From positions 1 through 12,421 of IMG/VR virus record IMGVR_UViG_2925919700_000002: a stretch of 12,421 nt of DNA; one strand, given 5' to 3'. Below the pieces are notes generated by a model that was given only the letters and a program-made list of their open reading frames with translations, was not told where the DNA came from and did no database searches. A program made the position numbers and the translations under genes. How positions within the stretch are numbered: the stretch's first letter is position 1; every line of letters begins with the position of its first letter. The DNA is from a virus (lineage: Duplodnaviria > Heunggongvirae > Uroviricota > Caudoviricetes). Of this stretch, positions 2,297-12,421 are shown one piece after another.

Positions 2297-3394
2297 TTAG
2301 AACTGGTAAACCAGACCTACAGCAACGATGTCATCAGTGCTTACACCGAGTGCTTTAGTGAAGTCATTTTTGTCAAGCAGGTTGATTTTGTAATCAACGA
2401 AAGTAGACATATTTTTGTTGAAGTAATAGGTTGCACCTACATCAACATATTTGACTAAGTCCTGATCGCCCCATACTCCAAGATCCTTACCTTTAGATTG
2501 CAGGTAAGCAACGGACGGACGCAGACCGAAATCGAACTGATATTGTGCAACAGCTTCGAAGTTTTGAGCTTTATTAGCAACGAAGTGATCAGCAAATACA
2601 GTCATATTCTGGGTTTCAGAATAGGTAGTGGCCAGGTAAATGTTGTTAGCGTCATATTTCAGACCTGCGGCCCAAACTTCTGCATTTTTACCGGAAGCAA
2701 ATACTTCAGGAAGAACTTTCCCTGCATTAACTTGAGTGTCGGTACGATCAGATTTCGCATAAGTTGCACCGATACCGAATCCTTCGTATTCATAGGTAGC
2801 AGAGAAACCGAAGCCATCACCGTTACCTTCGGTGTAGTTATCGAAATCGCTACGATCGTTTTTGCCTTGGTACTGAGCAGCAAAGTTCAGACCATCAACC
2901 AGACCAAAGAAGTCGTTGTTACGATAGGTTGCAACACCAGTGGTGCGACCAGTCATGAACACATCTGTTTGGGTCCAGGTATCGCCACCGAATTCTGGCA
3001 GAACGTCAGTCCACGCACCGATGTCGTATGCTACACCGTAGTTACGGCCGTAATCGATTGAGCCGTAGTCACCGAATTTCAGGCCTGCAAATGCAAGACG
3101 GGTTTTGTCTTTGGAGGAACCTTGAGATTCAGCGCGGTTGCCTTTGAATTCATATTCCCACTGACCGAAACCAGTCAGCTGATCGTTGATTTGGGTTTCG
3201 CCTTTGAAGCCCAGACGAACATAAGTAGTATCACCATCATCTGCATCGTTAGAGGAAAAGTAGTGCTTGGCATTAACTTTCCCGTACAGATCCAGCTTGT
3301 TACTGTCTTTATTATAAATTTCAGCTGCCTGAGCAGACATCGCCATCAGTACTGATGCAGCTACAGCAGAAATTGCCACTGTTAATTTTTTCAT
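2297..3394 (-). CDS. nmpC: Outer-membrane general porin, prophage-encoded NmpC/Lc type (OmpC/OmpF/PhoE family), intact
   Basis: 365 aa. Sec signal peptide [23 protein letters not shown] then AEIYNKD. Porin signatures throughout and a C-terminal ...VGLVYQF ending in Phe. AAGGG lies upstream of the ATG at 3392-3394. No insertion sequence interrupts it. Confidence 0.9.
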
Positions 3395-3982
3395 CGTGAG
3401 CCCTTTTTTTTGAACTATTATTAAAAAATGATGTCACTGCACGATAAATATTCATCTAATCAATGTGATTATTTCAAGATGTAAGTTTTAGTTTCTCATT
3501 TAATTTGTGAAGTAGATCTCTATTTTTATCTGAACTTTTTCTATCGAAACCTATTTATGGCTCTTATTTGAACAAAAATAAATCTATTAGCTAATTTATA
3601 TTAATGGCTGTTATTTATGGTGGTTCTATAATTCGTCTGTTTAATTTAAACCGGCTAAAAATAACACTGGAAATTATTTATTGGTTATTTGTTGAGGTTT
3701 TCTTATGTATTTGTGGTGATGTTTTGAACACTCGGTAGCATTCTCATAAATATCATTCAGTGGTTTACGTACGTAAAAAATTGGTTATGCTGTTAAGAGT
3801 GGTTACTTCGTCACACAGCTTAAACCCGCCGTCGAGCTGGTTTTTCCATTTTTTGAGTCTCGATATTAGCTGATAACTCAATACCTGAGTTATTCACTGA
3901 CTCGGAGTCAGTTACGTTTCTGCTTTTTTGCGATACGTTGTATTCCCTCAATTTACACCCGCTTTGTCTGCGAGGTGGGGTT
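3395..3982. promoter_or_regulatory. AT-rich 590-bp intergenic region: nmpC promoter/regulatory region and lysis-cassette leader
   Basis: No ORF of 60 aa or more. Degenerate direct repeats of TTATTTATGG at about 3552, 3611 and 3675, roughly 60 bp apart. Hairpin ACTGAC-TCGGA-GTCAGT at 3896-3912 upstream of the holin. Confidence 0.35.
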
Positions 3983-4198
3983 ATGAAATTCATGGATAAG
4001 TTAACAACTGGAGTCGCCTATGGCACCTCAGCAGGTAGTGCCGGTTACTGGTTTTTACAGCTGCTCGATAAAGTCACTCCCTCACAGTGGGCAGCAATAG
4101 GTGTGCTGGGTAGCCTGGTATTTGGCCTGCTGACGTACCTGACAAACCTTTATTTCAAGATTAAAGAAGATAAGCGCAAGGCTGCGAGAGGTGAATAA
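3983..4198 (+). CDS. essD: Class II pinholin, phage 21 S type, with dual-start motif
   Basis: 71 aa, [24 protein letters not shown]... Met1-Lys-Phe-Met4 gives antiholin and holin starts. Two TMDs and a charged C-terminus ([13 protein letters not shown]). GAGGTGGGG lies upstream. Stop overlaps the endolysin start (TAATG). Confidence 0.9.
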
Positions 4199-4695
4199 TG
4201 CCTCCATCATTACGAAAAGCCGTTGCTGCTGCTATTGGTGGCGGAGCAATTGCTATAGCATCAGTGTTAATCACTGGCCCAAGTGGTAACGATGGTCTGG
4301 AAGGTGTCAGCTACATACCATACAAAGATATTGTTGGTGTATGGACTGTATGTCACGGACACACCGGAAAAGACATCATGCTCGGTAAAACGTATACCAA
4401 AGCAGAATGCAAAGCACTCTTGAATAAAGACCTTGCCACTGTCGCCAGACAAATTAACCCGTATATCAAAGTCGATATACCGGAAACAACGCGCGGCGCT
4501 CTTTACTCATTCGTTTACAATGTGGGTGCTGGCAATTTTAGAACATCGACGCTTCTTCGCAAAATAAACCAGGGCGATATCAAAGGCGCATGTGATCAGC
4601 TGCGTCGCTGGACATACGCTGGCGGTAAGCAATGGAAAGGCCTGATGACTCGTCGTGAGATTGAGCGTGAAGTCTGTTTGTGGGGGCAACAGTGA
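4198..4695 (+). CDS. rrrD: SAR endolysin (signal-anchor-release lysozyme, phage 21 R type)
   Basis: 165 aa. N-terminal Gly/Ala-rich weakly hydrophobic SAR domain ([22 protein letters not shown]) followed by a lysozyme-like catalytic region. ATG overlaps the holin stop. Confidence 0.9.
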
Positions 4696-5153
4696 GCAGA
4701 GTAACCGCGATTATATCCGCTCTGATTATCTGCATCATCGTCAGCCTGTCATGGGCGGTCAATCATTACCGTGATAACGCAATCGCCTACAAAGCCCAGC
4801 GCGACAAAAATGCCAGAGAACTGAAGCTAGCGAACGCGGCAATTACTGACATGCAGATGCGTCAGCGTGATGTTGCTGCGCTCGATGCAAAATACACGAA
4901 GGAGTTAGCTGATGCGAAAGCTGAAAATGATGCTCTGCGTGATGATGTTGCCGCTGGTCGTCGTCGGTTGCACATCAAAGCAGTCTGTCAGTCAGTGCGT
5001 GAAGCCACCACGGCCTCCGGCGTGGATAATGCAGCCTCCCCCCGACTGGCAGACACCGCTGAACGGGATTATTTCACCCTCAGAGAGAGGCTGATCACTA
5101 TGCAAAAACAACTGGAAGGAACCCAGAAGTATATTAATGAGCAGTGCAGATAG
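4692..5153 (+). CDS. rzpD: Rz inner-membrane spanin (i-spanin), lambda Rz-like
   Basis: 153 aa from GTG 4692 ([29 protein letters not shown]...). N-terminal TMD plus coiled-coil periplasmic domain. GTG overlaps the endolysin TGA (GTGA). The ORF track's 4680 start is less likely. Confidence 0.85.
4912..5094 (+). CDS. rzoD: Rz1 outer-membrane lipoprotein spanin (o-spanin), embedded in the +1 frame of Rz
   Basis: 60 aa, [20 protein letters not shown]... Lipobox VVGC, then a proline-rich mature part ([15 protein letters not shown]). GGAG lies 7 nt upstream of the ATG. Lies wholly inside Rz. Confidence 0.8.
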
Positions 5154-5184
5154 AGCTGACCATATCGATGGGCAACTCATGCAA

Positions 5185-5478
5185 TTATTTTGAGCAATAC
5201 ACACGCGCTTCCAGCGGAGTATAAATGCCTAAAGTAATAAAACCGAGCAATCCATTTACGAATGTTTGCTGGGTTTCTGTTTTAACAACATTTTCTGCGC
5301 CGCCACAAATTTTGGCTGCATCGACAGTTTTCTTCTGCCCAATTCCAGAAACGAAGAAATGATGGGTGATGGTTTCCTTTGGTGCTACTGCTGTCTGTTT
5401 GTTTTGAACAGTAAACGTCTGTTGAGCACATCCTGTAATAAGCAGGGCCAGCGCAGTAGCGAGTAGCATTTTTTTCAT
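5185..5478 (-). CDS. borD: Bor lipoprotein (lambda Bor-type serum-resistance outer-membrane lipoprotein)
   Basis: 97 aa. Signal peptide with lipobox (LLITGC). Near-identical to the lambda Bor sequence as I recall it. Confidence 0.9.
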   Translation of the reverse strand: MKKMLLATALALLITGCAQQTFTVQNKQTAVAPKETITHHFFVSGIGQKKTVDAAKICGGAENVVKTETQQTFVNGLLGFITLGIYTPLEARVYCSK

Positions 5479-5768
5479 GGTGTTATTCCCGATGCTTTTT
5501 GAAGTTCGCAGAATCGTATGTGTAGAAAATTAAACAAACCCTAAACAATGAGTTGAAATTTCATATTGTTAATATTTATTAATGTATGTCAGGTGCGATG
5601 AATCGTCATTGTATTCCCGGATTAACTATGTCCACAGCCCTGACGGGGAACTTCTCTGCGGGAGTGTCCGGGAATAATTAAAAACGATGCACACAGGGTT
5701 TAGCGCGTACACGTATTGCATTATGCCAACGCCCCGGTGCTGACACGGAAGAAACCGGACGTTATGAT

Positions 5769-6179
5769 TTAGCGTGGAAAGATTTGTGTAGTGTTCTGAA
5801 TGCTCTCAGTAAATAGTAATGAATTATCAAAGGTATAGTAATATCTTTTATGTTCGTGGATATTTGTAACCCATCGGAAAACTCCTGCTTTAGCAAGATT
5901 TTCCCTGTATTGCTGAAATGTGATTTCTCTTGATTTCAACCTATCAAAGGACGTTTCTATAAGATGCGTATTTCTTGAGAATTTAACATTTACAACCTTT
6001 TTAAGTCCTTTTATTAACACAGTGTTATCGTTTTCTAACACAATGTGAATATTATCTGTGGCTAGATAGTAAATATAATGTGAGACATTGTGACGTTTTA
6101 GTTCAGAATAAAACAATTCACAGTTTAAATCTTTTCGCACTTGATCGAATATTTCTTTAAAAATGGCAACCTGAGCCAT
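5769..6179 (-). CDS. ybcV: DLP12-type prophage protein YbcV (DUF1398)
   Basis: 136 aa from ATG 6177-6179 ([11 protein letters not shown]...), with GGAAGG upstream. The open frame extends upstream to an ATG at 6221 and a TTG at 6302, so the start is ambiguous. Confidence 0.7.
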
Positions 6180-6464
6180 TGGTAAAACCTTCCATGTGAT
6201 ACGAGGGCGCGTAGTTTGCATTATCGTTTTTATCGTTTCAATCTGGTCTGACCTCTTTGTGTTTTGTTGATGATTTATGTCAAATATTAGGAATGTTTTC
6301 AATTAATAGTATTGGTTGTGTAACAAAGTGCGGTCCTGCTGGCATTCTGGAGGGAAATACAACCGACAGATGTATGTAAGGCCAACGTGCTCAAATCTTC
6401 ATACAGAAAGATTTGAAGTAATATTTTAACCGCTAGATGAAGAGCAAGCGCATGGAGCGACAAA

Positions 6465-6671
6465 ATGAATAAAGAACAATCTGCTGATGATCCCTCCGTG
6501 GATCTGATTCGTGTAAAAAATATGCTTAATAGCACCATTTCTATGAGTTACCCTGATGTTGTAATTGCATGTATAGAACATAAGGTGTCTCTGGAAGCAT
6601 TCAGGGCAATTGAGGCAGCGTTGGTGAAGCACGATAATAATATGAAGGATTATTCCCTGGTGGTTGACTGA
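6465..6671 (+). CDS. ybcW: Small DLP12-type prophage protein (YbcW-like), function unknown
   Basis: 68 aa, [22 protein letters not shown]... GGAG lies 7 nt upstream of the ATG. Divergent from ybcV. Confidence 0.6.
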
Positions 6672-6937
6672 TCACCATAACTGCTAATCATTCAAACTAC
6701 TTAACCTGTGACAGAGCCAACACGCAGTCTGTCACTGTCAGGAAAGTGGTAAAACTGCAACTCAATTACTGCAATGCCCTCGTAATTAAGTGAATTTACA
6801 ATATCGTCCTGTTCGGAGGGAAGAACGCGGGATGTTCATTCTTCATCACTTTTAATTGATGTATATGCTCTCTTTTCTGACGTTAGCCTCCGACGGCAGG
6901 CTTCAATGACCCAGGCTGAGAAATTCCCGGACCCTTT

Positions 6938-9028
6938 TTGATCAAGAGCGATGTTAATTTGTTCAATCATTTGGTTAGGAAATCCGCGGCAACGCGCGCC
7001 GAGACAGCAGCAAAACGGGCAGAGGATATTGCATCCGCCGTGGCGCTTGAGGATGCGAGCACGACGAAAAAGGGGATAGTACAGCTCAGCAGTGCGACCA
7101 ACAGCACGTCTGAAACGCTGGCGGCAACGCCAAAGGCAGTAAAAGCAGCCAATGACAATGCTGAGAAACGTCTGCAGAAAGACCAGAACGGCGCTGATAT
7201 ACCCGATAAGGGACGCTTCCTGAACAACATTAACGCGGTCAGTAAAACAGACTTTGCTGATAAGCGTGGTATGCGTTATGTGCGGGTTAACGCTCCTGCA
7301 GGTGCAACATCTGGAAAATATTACCCTGTTGTTGTTATGCGTTCTGCTGGCTCAGTAAGCGAACTGGCATCAAGGGTCATTATCACCACGGCAACGCGAA
7401 CCGCAGGCGATCCGATGAATAACTGCGAGTTTAACGGATTTGTTATGCCTGGTGGCTGGACTGACAGGGGGCGTTATGCTTATGGAATGTTCTGGCAATA
7501 TCAAAACAATGAACGAGCCATCCACTCAATAATGATGAGTAATAAGGGCGATGATTTGCGCTCTGTGTTCTATGTTGATGGCGCTGCTTTCCCTGTTTTT
7601 GCGTTTATCGAAGATGGCCTGTCAATATCCGCACCTGGTGCTGATCTCGTTGTTAATGATACGACCTATAAGTTTGGGGCAACAAATCCAGCGACTGAAT
7701 GTATCGCGGCGGACGTTATCCTTGATTTTAAGAGTGGGCGTGGTTTTTATGAGTCTCATTCGTTAATCGTTAACGATAACTTGTCGTGCAAAAAACTTTT
7801 TGCCACAGACGAAATTGTAGCGCGTGGTGGTAATCAGATTCGAATGATAGGTGGGGAGTATGGTGCATTATGGCGTAATGATGGCGCTAAAACTTACCTG
7901 CTGCTTACCAATCAAGGTGATGTTTATGGTGGCTGGAATACATTAAGACCGTTTGCTATTGATAACGCAACCGGCGAACTGGTTATTGGAACCAAACTGT
8001 CCGCAAGTCTGAACGGTAATGCATTAACAGCAACAAAGCTGCAAACGCCAAGACTGGTTTCTGGTGTTGAGTTTGATGGTTCCAAAGATATTACTTTAAC
8101 CGCCGCGCATGTGGCTGCTTTTGCCAGAAGGGCAACGGATACGTATGCCGATGCGGATGGGGGCGTTCCATGGAATGCCGAATCAGGCGCTTACAATGTC
8201 ACCCGCTCTGGCGACAGCTATATTCTGGTTAACTTCTATACCGGAGTCGGAAGTTGCCGGACCTTGCAGATGAAGGCACATTACAGAAATGGAGGTCTGT
8301 TCTACCGTTCCTCAAGAGATGGCTATGGTTTTGAGGAAGACTGGGCAGAAGTTTATACCTCGAAAAATCTTCCACCAGAAAGCTACCCAGTCGGTGCACC
8401 AATCCCGTGGCCATCAGATACCGTTCCGTCTGGTTATGCCCTGATGCAGGGGCAGACTTTTGACAAATCTGCATACCCGAAACTTGCAGCCGCTTATCCG
8501 TCAGGCGTGATCCCTGATATGCGTGGCTGGACGATTAAGGGCAAACCTGCCAGTGGTCGTGCCGTATTGTCTCAGGAACAGGACGGCATTAAATCGCACA
8601 CCCACAGCGCCAGCGCATCCAGTACGGATTTGGGGACGAAAACCACATCGTCGTTTGATTACGGCACTAAATCCACGAATAACACCGGGGCGCATACGCA
8701 CAGTGTGAGCGGTACAGCCGCAAGTGCCGGAAACCATACTCATAGTGTCACAGGCGCATCAGCAGTCAGCCAGTGGTCACAAAATGGGTCAGTACATAAG
8801 GTAGTGTCTGCGGCCAGTGTGAATACAAGTGCTGCAGGAGCGCACACTCATAGTGTCAGCGGCACAGCCGCATCTGCAGGTGCTCACGCACATACTGTCG
8901 GTATTGGTGCTCATACGCACTCTGTTGCGATTGGCTCACATGGACACACCATCACCGTTAACGCTGCTGGTAACGCGGAAAACACCGTCAAAAACATCGC
9001 ATTTAACTACATTGTGAGGCTTGCATAA
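6938..9028 (+). CDS. stf: Side tail fibre protein, 5'-truncated: distal ~680 aa only, lacking the N-terminal tail-attachment domain; start codon uncertain (possible pseudogene)
   Basis: Open frame of 696 codons from TTG 6938. Similarity to Stf begins near 6984 ([55 protein letters not shown]). Conserved C-terminal block (GAPIPWPSD ... [31 protein letters not shown] ... [18 protein letters not shown]) matches lambda Stf and StfR as recalled. No in-frame ATG with an RBS near the 5' end. Confidence 0.8.
8596..8957 (+). repeat. His-x-His repeat array within the stf 3' region
   Basis: Repeated [15 protein letters not shown] units (8688-8732 and 8838-8882) plus shorter HTHS/HAHT/HGHT units. These are coding repeats, typical of the fibre-tip domains of lambda Stf and T4 gp37-type fibres. 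Confidence 0.7.
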
Positions 9029-9603
9029 TGGCATTCAGAATGAGTGAACAACCACGGACCATAAAAATTTATAATCTGCTGTCCGGAACTAATGAATTTA
9101 TTGGTGAAGGTGATGCATATATTCCGCCTCATACAGGTCTGCCAGCAAACAGTACCGATATTGCACCGCCAGATATTCCGGCTGGTTTCGTGGCTGTTTT
9201 CAACAGTGATGAGTCATCGTGGCATCTCGTTGAAGATCATCGGGGTAAAACGGTTTATGACGTGGCTTCCGGCGACGCGTTATTTATTTCTGAACTCGGC
9301 TCATTACCGGAAAATGTCACCTGGTTATCCCCGGAAGGGGAGTTTCAGAAGTGGAACGGCACAGCCTGGGGGAAGGATACGGAAGCAGAAAAACTGTTCC
9401 GGATCCGGGAGGCGGAAGAAACAAAAAACAGCCTGATGCAGGTAGCCAGTGAGCATATAGCGCCGCTTCAGGATGCTGTGGATCTGGAGATCGCAACGGA
9501 GAAAGAAACCTTGTTGCTGGAAGCCTGGAAAAAGTATCGGGTGTTGCTGAATCGTGTTGATACATCAACTGCACCGGATATTGAATGGCCAGCCCTACCG
9601 TAG
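9028..9603 (+). CDS. tfa: Tail fibre assembly protein (Tfa)
   Basis: 191 aa. ATG overlaps the stf stop (TAATG). Conserved C-terminal Tfa block [37 protein letters not shown]. Confidence 0.85.
9455..9568 (+). repeat. Direct repeat copy A (tfa 3' conserved block)
   Basis: About 114 bp, roughly 85% identical by eye to 12226-12340, in the same orientation. Confidence 0.7.
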
Positions 9604-9679: not shown

Positions 9680-9703
9680 AATCTCACACCGAGATTATTT
9701 TTA
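9680..9703. terminator. Weak hairpin between convergent tfa and recombinase genes; possible bidirectional terminator
   Basis: Stem AATCTC / GAGATT with loop ACACC at 9680-9696, followed by ATTTTT on the plus strand. Short stem, low confidence. Confidence 0.3.
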
Positions 9704-10291
9704 TATATCAGGTGTCTGATTTTTTGCTTTAGCTCTTAAAATGGTTTGCCGCGAGGTTTTGAATTCTTGGGCAATGTCACTTATATTTATACCTGACTTA
9801 ATTTGCTCTAGTACCCTCTGTATTTGTTCATCATTTAACACAGGTGGGCGACCAAATCGCTTTCCTGCGCCCCGTGCTCTTAATATCCCTGAATGAGTAC
9901 GCTCAAGTAAAAGGTCTCGCTCAAATTCAGCGACTGCTGAAATTACTTGCATCATCATTTTTCCAGGTGGACTGGTCAGGTCAACGCCCCCCAATGCTAA
10001 GCAATGCACTTTGATACCTGCTTTGGTCAGTTGTTCCACCGTTTTACTGATATCCATTGGATTACAACCGAGGCGATCCAGTTTTGTGACAATCAATGCA
10101 TCACCTCTTTTCAGTCGATCAAGCAACTGGTTAAAACCAGGACGCTCACTGGTTGCTGCTGAGCCGCTAATTTGTTCTTCAATTATTTGCTGAGATTTGA
10201 TGTTAAAACCTGCACTTTCGATTTCCCGACGTTGATTTTTGGTTGTTTGTTCCAGAGTTGATACCCGACAGTAAGCATAAATTCGAGACAT
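9701..10291 (-). CDS. Small serine recombinase (resolvase/invertase family), PinR/PinQ-like
   Basis: 196 aa. N-terminal catalytic motif [11 protein letters not shown] with the presumptive catalytic Ser. Conserved [12 protein letters not shown] and [14 protein letters not shown] blocks. C-terminal HTH ([19 protein letters not shown]). Position after stf-tfa on the opposite strand matches the Rac and Qin layout. Confidence 0.85.
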
Positions 10292-10843: not shown

Positions 10844-11343
10844 GAAGATATTCCTTAAAATATTATTGATTTTCATTGCGATATTGTATGTCTGATTCAG
10901 TATATGTTGACTTATACATCGGTTTTGTCTGGGTTATTGGATATGCCAATCCCTAATTTTATTAGAGCATGACTAAAAATGCTGAATATGATAAGGAGCG
11001 AAGTGATTATCAGTATGCTGTTCATATAGCCTCGAATTAGTAATGTGTTATATATGATATAGTTGACAATTTTTATCCTGGGGGTTCTTAAAGTTCGTAG
11101 ATAAACATTGTCGTTTCAGGTATACAGGAATGCTAACAGGTGGCAGCAAAAATCAGGCGGTTTATGGCGCAAGCTGAAGTGGCAACTGCAAACTATCTTA
11201 TGCAGAGACTCTACACGGATTGGGTTTAAAAGTATACATAGATAACAGTTTTTATCTGAAGAAGAAAAATATCAAGGTGATATAGCCTATATGCCTATGA
11301 TGCGGAGGAATGAATGTGATGGGAGTGATGTATCTGAATAGTT

Positions 11344-11383
11344 GAAAAACCGCAGACACGCCTTAAGCAAGAACGTGCTGCGG
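11344..11383 (-). terminator. Rho-independent terminator downstream of the ybcY-like gene
   Basis: On the minus strand: stem CCGCAGCACG ... CGTGTCTGCGG (plus 11350-11383, one bulge) followed directly by TTTTT (plus 11345-11349). Confidence 0.6.
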
Positions 11384-11390
11384 TTGGATG

Positions 11391-12059
11391 CTATTTTTTC
11401 CCTGAAGCGGAAAACATTACTACAGTACCTTGAACCTTGGTTTTAACATTCTCGAAATGCTCTGAGAGTATATGTGTTAAGCCTTCTTCGGAATCTTTTG
11501 TGTTTGAAAAGATGCCTTTCTGATTGTAAATGCGCATCAGTTTTTGACCGAAGCTATTGTGCACAACTCCATCGCCAAGAATTGTGGCTCCGTATAGAGT
11601 TCCATCGTCAGTTAAGGCCTGCGCCGCATTGCGTATTACACAGCTTTTTGTAGATATATTTCCAGGCAGGCAGTGAAGAAGGTAAAACATGGAAATGGAA
11701 TCAAATTGACCATGTAACGCCGCGGGATAAGGTTCAAAAACATCATGGCTAATTTTATGTTTAATTTTTGATTCCCCAGCCCTTGTAGATGCCGCGTTCA
11801 GGCTAGCTTCGTTCAAATCCATTAAAGATATCAGACTACTCTCAGGTACGTGAGTAAGGTAAAACCCAGTTCCAACACCAATATCCAGATGGTTGTTACC
11901 TAAATGTTCCAGAAAGTGTGGAAGAAGGTGTTCCTTTGTAGGACATCCCCATGCAAGCCGATTTGATACTCCCAAAACCCACCAGTCATAAAGCTTTAGG
12001 GTAAGTGGTGTGTAAATTTTAGCCCCATCATCTGTGTTTTTTTTCATTAATTTCACCAT
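11391..12059 (-). CDS. ybcY: Class I SAM-dependent methyltransferase (YbcY-like), apparently intact
   Basis: 222 aa. Motif I DIGVGTGFY. The start may instead be the second Met (ATG ending at 12047), which has GGTG upstream; the first ATG at 12059 has no RBS. Confidence 0.7.
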   Translation of the reverse strand: MVKLMKKNTDDGAKIYTPLTLKLYDWWVLGVSNRLAWGCPTKEHLLPHFLEHLGNNHLDIGVGTGFYLTHVPESSLISLMDLNEASLNAASTRAGESKIKHKISHDVFEPYPAALHGQFDSISMFYLLHCLPGNISTKSCVIRNAAQALTDDGTLYGATILGDGVVHNSFGQKLMRIYNQKGIFSNTKDSEEGLTHILSEHFENVKTKVQGTVVMFSASGKK

Positions 12060-12115: not shown

Positions 12116-12421
12116 ATGCTGCCGCAGCATAGCGATATTGAAATAGCCTGGTATGCTTCGATACAACAGGAGCCGAATGGCTGGAAGACCGTCACCACAC
12201 AGTTCTACATCCAGGAATTCAGTGAGTATATTGCGCCACTGCAGGATGCTGTAGATCTGGAAATCGCAACGGAGGAAGAAAGATCGTTGCTGGAGGCATG
12301 GAATAAATATCGGGTATTGTTGAATCGAGTTGATACATCAGTAGCTCTGGGTATGAAGCTGTTTGTAACTCATGTTACAGTAACAGTCATTACTATCTCG
12401 AAGGTGCAAAATGTATATTGA
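12116..12421 (+). CDS. tfaX: Tail fibre assembly protein remnant (TfaX-like), carrying only the conserved Tfa C-terminal block
   Basis: 101 aa. AAGGGG lies upstream of the ATG at 12116. Contains [37 protein letters not shown], then an unrelated tail. Stop at 12419-12421. Confidence 0.6.
12226..12340 (+). repeat. Direct repeat copy B (tfa 3' conserved block)
   Basis: Partner of 9455-9568, same orientation. Confidence 0.7.

Follow-up and report, generated by a model that had tools for sequence, protein, structure and literature searches.

Phage lambda is the best-studied temperate phage, yet two genes of its right end, lambdap78 and lambdap79, are without an assigned function. Here we describe their counterparts in a stretch of 12,421 nucleotides (nt) from a tailed-phage record (IMGVR_UViG_2925919700_000002; this whole stretch is called the window, and positions follow its numbering unless another sequence is named). 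A 903-bp segment of the window (5769-6671), which was used as the query in genome searches, carries two open reading frames (ORFs) that an initial annotation had named ybcV and ybcW and regarded as a divergent pair. They are the E. coli genes of these names, which have long been annotated in E. coli K-12 and in lambda and are already known. We conclude that ybcV and ybcW behave as two independent accessory modules and not as a working pair.

Apart from lambda, the locus has close described relatives in DLP12 of K-12, which is of the same locus type at argU with the same RefSeq gene names, and in the Qin prophage, where ydfO occupies the slot of ybcV, i.e. between the lysis genes and the terminase and antisense to the late genes. 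The Qin protein YdfO has been solved by nuclear magnetic resonance (PDB 2HH8), a structure that carries no functional annotation. A further point of comparison is provided by the lambda morons bor and lom; bor, like ybcV, is small, lies in the late region on the opposite strand, deviates in base composition, has terminator-like signals and is present or absent between similar phages; its product, however, is an exported lipoprotein with a known serum-resistance phenotype, whereas YbcV is cytoplasmic. Finally, lambdap79 has been connected with Vulcan, a NIR-NADase fused to HEAT repeats, which protects E. coli from lambda-vir (September 2026 preprint).

The two genes belong to the right end of phage lambda

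A blastn comparison aligned window 4693-6982 with lambda 45967-48255 at 98.5% DNA identity and with one gap, so the block is phage lambda's own right end, which the initial annotation had missed. At the protein level, YbcV shares 98.5% identity with lambdap78, identity between YbcW and lambdap79 reaches 100%, and the two lambda genes have the same order, orientation and spacer as ybcV and ybcW in the window. In lambda, the block is part of a functional late operon and leads into cos and the terminase genes, whereas the block in the window ends at a tail-fibre junction; the homology stops about 250 bp before lambda cos, where the ylcI/tail-fibre deletion starts. The ybcW DNA of K-12 strains is 100% identical and their ybcV DNA about 99% identical to that of the window. 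DNA identical to the window is present in many complete E. coli genomes, in which RefSeq features it as ybcV, ybcW and a YlcI/YnfO-family gene, and the gene names given initially were therefore right. The window represents a defective lambdoid prophage of the DLP12 type, located at the E. coli argU tRNA. The features on which the following comparisons are based are:

4693-6982, no strand: block shared with lambda, with Rz/Rz1, bor, lambdap78, lambdap79 and a ylcI-like ORF, ending at the deletion junction
5769-6179, minus strand: ybcV, 136 amino acids (aa), soluble, basic (isoelectric point (pI) 9.2), DUF1398, 31.6% GC
6465-6671, plus strand: ybcW, 68 aa, acidic (pI 4.9), 39.6% GC
6259-6867, no strand: ybcW module, 609 bp, present in lambda, DLP12 and Tritos, with about 50 nt in its place in ev099 and Qin

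ybcV and ybcW are separate modules that meet in the spacer

The two genes face apart across 285 bp (6180-6464), which had been taken for a short shared promoter region. Related phages carry either gene without the other: phage ev099 and Qin have ybcV/ydfO without ybcW, while mEp460_ev081 and PhiR63_1 have the order csp-ynfN-gnsB-ybcW-(ylcI)-Nu1 without ybcV. In Tritos, the order is gnsB, ybcV (on the opposite strand) and ybcW, and relative to PhiR63_1 this phage contains a 591-bp insertion that holds ybcV (blastn). The same picture emerged from the 5,426 complete E. coli genomes, of which 3,024 contain ybcV-like DNA, 2,008 ybcW-like DNA and 1,401 the contiguous pair. The initial annotation was thus right about the adjacent and divergent arrangement, but the two genes are not obligate partners, as each occurs alone in phages and in E. 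coli genomes.

The boundaries of the shared stretches fall into the spacer. Window 5594-6258, which is common to ev099, covers ybcV with a leader of 79 nt, and window 6309-6817, which is common to PhiR63_1, covers ybcW with a leader of 156 nt (both blastn); more generally, a stretch from 6306 or 6309 to 6817 is common to phages with ybcW but without ybcV. Partial matches in E. coli genomes cover either query positions 1-490 (window 5769-6258, annotated as ydfO and ynfO) or 538-903 (window 6306-6671). The part from 6180 to about 6258/6308 hence travels with ybcV and the part from about 6306 to 6464 with ybcW. From these break points and phage boundaries we conclude that, on sequence comparison, the spacer is the recombination junction of two mosaic modules with a break at about 6258-6308. 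The idea of a shared promoter region was not confirmed, and a consensus scan of 6180-6464 found no sigma-70 consensus promoter. As was proposed initially, the site is an accessory-gene hotspot: the slot between the lysis genes and the terminase contains bor, ybcV, ybcW, csp genes, ynfN, gnsB, ylcI and other small ORFs in combinations that vary among related phages.

Both modules resemble morons in that they are discrete blocks, present or absent between collinear phages (the 591-bp ybcV insertion and the 609-bp ybcW module), and in that their base composition is unlike that of the flanks, with 31.6% GC in ybcV and 39.6% in ybcW versus 48.9% in the lysis genes. With regard to own signals and expression from the prophage, ybcV has a predicted hairpin, a conserved GATAAT and palindrome and a regulated mRNA in K-12, and no consensus promoter; ybcW, which is oriented like the late operon, probably lacks this moron property.

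We also considered that ybcV and ybcW are one two-gene system, toxin-antitoxin-like or anti-phage, in which a basic and an acidic partner are co-regulated from the spacer, a view that comes near to that of the initial annotation. They lie side by side and point apart in 1,401 E. coli genomes as well as in lambda, their charges are complementary (pI 9.2 versus 4.9), both mRNAs depend on PdhR and were induced jointly in two studies, and over-expression of ybcV was recovered in a glycogen screen beside known toxins. Type II toxin-antitoxin genes, however, are co-directional, co-transcribed and always found together, whereas ybcV and ybcW are divergent, not an operon, and each is frequently found by itself; the spacer joins two mosaic modules, lambda is viable with ybcW deleted and a ybcV-type gene kept, and the matches to the defence database PADLOC are weak and inconsistent among family members. 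We therefore consider a two-gene system very unlikely.

ylcI/ynfO as the neighbour of ybcV

The gene that follows ybcW in the block belongs to the YlcI/YnfO family, and its layout differs between the elements:

6836-6970, minus strand: ylcI remnant, DUF3950, YlcI/YnfO family, convergent with ybcW; extended to 7027 by RefSeq
4710-4943 and 5001-5408 of the Qin locus (L192): ynfO and ydfO, co-directional, with the same layout in ev099 (L163)

In the window, the deletion with its junction at about 6982 has removed the 5' end of ylcI, the 63-aa RefSeq call begins in unrelated sequence, and the basic N-terminal arm of Qin YnfO is missing. Qin has no ybcW, and both there and in ev099 ynfO (DUF3950, 77 aa) lies directly upstream of ydfO, at 58 nt and on the same strand, in an arrangement like a small operon. 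In lambda and DLP12, the 609-bp ybcW module (6259-6867) separates ylcI from ybcV, and the C-terminus of YlcI is different and shorter. From these layouts we conclude that ylcI/ynfO is the more conserved partner of ybcV. A palindrome at 6241-6257, which in the window forms part of the ybcV leader, corresponds to the last ynfO codons in Qin and ev099.

It follows that ybcV might function with ylcI/ynfO, as a regulator-plus-effector or toxin-antitoxin-like cassette near cos that was split by the insertion of ybcW. The 58-nt, same-strand arrangement in Qin and ev099 would fit such a cassette, as would the ybcV-only E. coli loci that were sampled, which carry ydfO and ynfO together, and the survival of the 3' end of an ynfO-type gene as the palindrome beside ybcV in lambda and DLP12. 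As a mere lead, YlcI and YnfO by eye also fit a ribbon-helix-helix pattern, but no ribbon-helix-helix family was matched by YnfO in Pfam/NCBIfam-type scans and no solved structure in the PDB. Moreover, ycgX, a paralogue of ybcV in the core genome, has no ynfO neighbour, the genes are apart in lambda and the C-terminus of YlcI is different there without apparent harm, and the ylcI of the window is truncated at its 5' end. On balance, a functional ybcV-ynfO cassette appears unlikely.

Lambda itself has a ylcI-like DUF3950 ORF between lambdap79 and cos, at about 48109-48243 on the minus strand (about 2872-3006 of locus L165), which is unannotated in NC_001416.

YbcV is a soluble DUF1398 protein

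YbcV matches the Pfam family DUF1398 (PF07166, YdfO-like) along the entire profile (positions 1-119 of 119) with an E value of 1.7e-46 and a score of 157.6 bits, the gathering score being 22, and in the more distant comparisons its ratio of non-synonymous to synonymous substitution rates (dN/dS) is 0.17-0.35, i.e. the gene is under purifying selection. The start of the gene is marked by:

6188-6193, minus strand: ybcV Shine-Dalgarno sequence GGAAGG, 8 nt before the ATG, conserved in the lambda-type, Tritos, ev099 and Qin copies

RefSeq starts lambdap78 at a TTG, giving 177 aa; Qin and ev099 show no conservation in the DNA of this N-terminal extension but retain the ribosome-binding site and the ATG of the shorter form, and as judged from this conservation the 136-aa start is the correct one and not that of RefSeq. 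Together with the Shine-Dalgarno site and the purifying selection of ybcW (see below), these results agree with the initial description of a 136-aa DUF1398 ORF and a 68-aa ORF that are divergent.

Qin YdfO and YbcV share 80% identity along all 136 residues (E 3e-71), which suggests by homology that YbcV has the fold of 2HH8; this entry was also the sole match when the DUF1398 profile was compared with the PDB sequences. The structure prediction and homology searches that the initial annotation had proposed were run and were of limited help, since the YbcV model (predicted local distance difference test (pLDDT) score 45) permitted no comparison and the YbcW model (pLDDT 74) had no structural neighbour. 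Foldseek searches with the poor YbcV model did not even retrieve 2HH8, and their matches were discarded as meaningless. Relaxed Pfam and NCBIfam scans gave matches at chance level only. Two PADLOC-DB 2.0 matches of YbcV, REase_II (18 bits) and Csx23 (12 bits), were rejected because they are weak and occur in three of nine and five of nine family members, respectively.

As for localization, YbcV has no membrane segment and no signal peptide, while Bor, which was run as a comparison, showed its N-terminal hydrophobic leader. This bears on the labels 'head protein' (PHROG 413, RefSeq) and 'putative envelope protein', according to which YbcV would be a component of the virion or envelope. Apart from the labels themselves we found nothing in favour of this: the late structural operon is read from the other strand, the CRISPR interference (CRISPRi) knockdown of the gene in lambda had no plating effect, the protein lacks the export signals of the lipoprotein Bor, the gene is absent from many lambdoid phages, and the chromosomal paralogue ycgX lies outside any phage. 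A role in the virion or envelope is thus extremely improbable. The 'head protein' label for YbcV/lambdap78 was rejected as an unsupported annotation without homology to a characterized structural protein, and clear homology to a characterized housekeeping or structural phage protein, which would have spoken against the initial interpretation, was not observed.

Two further DUF1398 genes were observed. E. coli ycgX, a third paralogue with 43% identity to YbcV (2727-3131, minus strand, of locus L208), lies between bluR and ymgL/iraM near icd, outside a recognizable prophage. The 903-bp query matched 5,387 of the 5,426 genomes, and the typical weakest match was a partial match to ycgX. A DUF1398 pseudogene (49% identical, with internal stop codons; 5001-5397 of locus L203) is located beside an Nu1-type terminase gene and antisense to packaging genes.

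YbcW is identical to the reported activator of Vulcan

YbcW is the same protein as the reported Vulcan activator lambdap79 (100% identity), although the activity itself is known from the preprint. There, all of the sequenced Vulcan escapers (7/7) had lost lambdap79, likely via recombination with Qin, co-expression of lambdap79 and Vulcan was toxic, and the escapers with lambdap79 deleted still formed plaques. Recombination with Qin fits our module map, in which lambda and Qin both possess the flanking ybcV/ydfO and ylcI/ynfO and differ by the ybcW module between them. Because seven escapers deleted lambdap79 and yet form plaques, lambdap79 is non-essential for lambda; from these escapers for lambdap79 and published CRISPRi data for lambdap78, both genes are dispensable for the phage. 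The initial view that neither protein has a known function therefore stands insofar as no biochemical function is established for either, but it has to be amended for YbcW, whose lambda copy is the reported Vulcan activator. Activation of Vulcan, known from co-expression and escapers, informs about recognition by the defence and not about the role of YbcW in the phage.

Vulcan was expressed in MG1655, and toxicity was reported only upon co-expression with lambdap79 (preprint). Since K-12 ybcW encodes the lambdap79 protein and Vulcan is nevertheless toxic only with co-expressed lambdap79, the resident chromosomal ybcW is probably almost silent in uninfected cells.

The gene begins with:

6454-6457, plus strand: ybcW Shine-Dalgarno sequence GGAG, 7 nt before the ATG

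YbcW matches phrog_657 end to end (positions 1-68 of 68, E 7.5e-48) and has no Pfam family and no membrane segment; its dN/dS of about 0.4 in the more distant comparisons indicates purifying selection. Residues 23-57 are almost invariant, while the N-terminus is variable. The structural model, of moderate quality, has three helices at 10-21, 30-38 and 43-59, and YbcW is thus probably a three-helix protein or bundle. Foldseek with this model gave no PDB match and only noise in BFVD (best E 3.7), and nothing meaningful was found when the sequence was compared with the PDB or with PADLOC-DB 2.0.

YbcW belongs to a very small family. When 1.84 billion representative proteins were searched exhaustively, 199 matches were obtained, nearly all of which are frameshifted or error-ridden copies of lambda, and the sole truly divergent homologue, P0318, shares 54% identity. 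P0318 (273-464 of locus L205) is encoded at the edge of a CP4-type island on an enterobacterial-like contig, beside AlpA, replication-protein-like and YagK/YfjJ zinc-ribbon genes; no lambda cos sequence lies nearby, and the locus gave no functional lead. Word-index searches for YbcV and YbcW retrieved close relatives only, many on ENA contigs of about 3.5 kb that resemble error-laden reads of a short lambda fragment, probably the nanopore control strand.

Thousands of 'distinct' YbcV and YbcW proteins in large collections are frameshifted translations of these contigs, which inflate the apparent size and diversity of the families. Near-identical lambda sequence, often on contigs of about 3.5 kb, also occurs in species-representative assemblies of Pseudomonas, Flavobacterium, Brevibacillus, Kitasatospora and others, and the 48-kb record 'Campylobacter phage CJLB-4' encodes YbcV and YbcW with 98.5% and 100% identity to those of the window, the same values as lambda. 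The lambda sequence in these unrelated taxa and the CJLB-4 record look like contamination with control DNA, and most of what the scan of the genome collection retrieved was lambda contamination.

Expression of ybcV and ybcW

Putative regulatory elements were found on the ybcV side of the locus:

6241-6257, no strand: PdhR box ATCTGGTCTGACCTCTT with the palindromic core GGTCTGACC, centred 70 nt upstream of the ybcV ATG
6220-6225, minus strand: GATAAT, a -10-like hexamer kept in all four aligned diverged ybcV/ydfO leaders
5687-5712, minus strand: predicted terminator-like hairpin with T run (consensus scan and RNA fold), 57 nt past the ybcV stop and upstream of the bor promoter region

A PdhR site in the ybcV-ybcW spacer of K-12 was identified by systematic evolution of ligands by exponential enrichment, and in a pdhR mutant the mRNA of ybcV was reduced 10.0-fold and that of ybcW 8.9-fold according to reverse transcription quantitative PCR (PMC7660256). 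The K-12 box is present exactly in the window, where no match to ATCTGGTCTGACCTCTT would be expected by chance. The ybcV leader is conserved in the four diverged copies with respect to GGAAGG, GATAAT and the palindrome, and GATAAT may represent a ybcV promoter element without a recognizable -35. Folding of the ybcV 3' region and of the ybcW leader RNA was unremarkable (z-scores -1.0 and -1.9, respectively), and a consensus scan found no plus-strand terminator-like site between Rz and ybcW.

Further published data show that Hha binds the ybcW region and induces ybcW 17-fold, that both genes are upregulated after DNase intoxication and more than 1000-fold after expression of T4 MotB in BL21(DE3), a strain whose lambda DE3 copies may add to the effect, that ybcV is induced in a sabinene-tolerance transcriptome, and that its over-expression alters the glycogen content; in K-12, ybcW-ylcI has been catalogued as a convergent excludon. 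These K-12 data demonstrate regulated transcription and do not show function.

In a dCas12a CRISPRi study of lambda, knockdown of lambdap79 lowered plating to 3e-4, while knockdown of lambdap78 (efficiency of plating about 1.9) or bor was without effect. Since lambdap79 is non-essential, the simplest explanation for its CRISPRi defect is polarity on the late transcript that passes through cos into the head genes; the authors of the study discuss polarity only for the nin region. The orientation of ybcW along the late operon and this polar-like defect make it most likely that ybcW is read from the late promoter in the intact phage.

The prophage around the locus

The remaining gene content of the window is as follows:

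Gene order: integrase remnant, quuD, porin gene, P21-type holin, lysozyme, Rz/Rz1, bor, ybcV, ybcW and truncated ylcI
3938-4198, holin; 4198-4695, lysozyme; 4680-5153, Rz; 5185-5478, bor
Beyond the truncated ylcI: abrupt switch to the 3' part of a tail-fibre gene, tfa and an invertase

ybcV and ybcW are thus located between the lysis genes and the junction at about 6982. The deletion at this junction eliminated cos and the terminase genes together with all sequence as far as the middle of the tail-fibre gene, in agreement with the 'former packaging genes' of the initial annotation. The window has the tail-fibre, tfa and invertase segment after ybcV and ybcW, where DLP12 of K-12 has nohD-aaaD-tfaD instead.

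In such a decaying element, both ORFs could be functionless cargo, kept only because the block is a recent lambda-like acquisition. The element no longer has cos, the terminase genes or most of its structural genes, the block, being 98.5% identical to lambda, has had only a short time to degenerate, lambda can do without either gene, and the region is bound by silencing proteins. However, purifying selection acts across diverged phage copies, the reading frames are intact in thousands of genomes and expression is regulated in K-12; furthermore, cargo would account for the state of the local copy and not for the roles of the genes in phages. We thus assign a low probability to this explanation.

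A further reverse-oriented insertion in the late region is an intact porin gene (2297-3394, minus strand, 365 aa) between the Q antiterminator gene and the holin, whose K-12 counterpart, nmpC, is disrupted. A Pin-type recombinase gene (9701-10291, minus strand) adjoins the tail-fibre/tfa genes (6938-9603, plus strand), and a second, partial tfa lies at the end of the window (12116-12421); these may be the remains of an invertible tail-fibre segment. Rfam IS009 matches lie inside both tail-fibre-assembly genes, at 9371-9569 (plus strand, 212.6 bits, above the gathering score of 117) and at 12139-12342 (plus strand, 107.4 bits, below it). A weak match to the Shigella small RNA CssrB at 11245-11382 (plus strand, 30.7 bits against a gathering score of 76), adjoining a methyltransferase gene (ORF 11391-12059, minus strand), is probably due to chance. 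The Rfam scan of 5480-6990 gave no RNA family, and a check of the region found no notable repeats.

Discussion

The explanation that we favour, and hold to be moderately probable, is that ybcV and ybcW are two independent accessory modules of the right end of a lambda-type phage, left in a defective prophage. In this scenario, ybcV would be a self-contained moron, i.e. a discrete AT-rich cassette inserted antisense to the late operon and equipped with its own ribosome-binding site, a conserved leader that contains a -10-like hexamer and the palindrome bound by PdhR, and a hairpin resembling a terminator. Expression of ybcV would start from the prophage, outside the lytic programme, and be controlled by the host (H-NS/Hha-type silencing and PdhR dependence); the gene would provide a soluble, basic, cytoplasmic DUF1398 protein that lambda can grow without; its older neighbour would be ylcI/ynfO, directly upstream and co-directional in Qin and ev099. 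The second module, ybcW, would be made late in the intact phage by read-through from the Q-dependent late promoter, just upstream of cos. Its dispensable product would be sensed by the HEAT-repeat NADase Vulcan, and in the remnant present in the window the gene would probably be almost silent. Any benefit of the two genes to the host would be hypothetical.

Several points weigh against this explanation. Both mRNAs fall in the pdhR mutant and both rise with DNase intoxication and MotB, and some common control of ybcV and ybcW in K-12 is possible. The predicted promoter assignments rest on consensus and on conservation in four leaders, two of which are closely related, and the palindrome belongs to a coding sequence in Qin and ev099, and this by itself could account for its conservation. 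The CRISPRi result for lambdap79 was left unexplained by its authors, and the Vulcan work is a preprint and used over-expression. Finally, the AlphaFold model of YbcV, which was derived from a shallow alignment of 14 sequences with 85-99% identity, allowed no fold comparison, and no function was obtained for DUF1398 from the analysis.

As to what the proteins do, our best guess is that YbcV and YbcW act by binding other proteins. It is doubtful whether YbcV is a modulator or exclusion factor expressed in the lysogen, and equally doubtful whether YbcW is a late accessory or counter-defence factor. A more specific version, which we regard as improbable, is that YbcW is a dedicated late counter-defence or packaging-accessory protein and, separately, that DUF1398 and DUF3950 form a prophage regulator-effector cassette acting in phage exclusion or host physiology. 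Such a role of YbcW would explain why a HEAT-repeat NADase evolved to detect it, and if either part were true, this would be the first function for a lambda gene to which none has been assigned since the genome was sequenced.

These findings will hardly surprise a specialist, and the genes have long been annotated. For the DUF1398 family, of which more than half of the complete E. coli genomes carry a copy, our results mean that ybcV and ybcW should not be studied as a pair and that ylcI/ynfO is the more conserved neighbour of ybcV. Database entries that call lambdap78 a 'head protein' or an 'envelope protein' lack support, and these labels should not spread. Since YbcW is identical to the reported trigger of Vulcan, thousands of E. 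coli strains carry a potential chromosomal self-trigger of an NAD-depleting defence, which bears on the question of which defence systems are compatible with which prophages.

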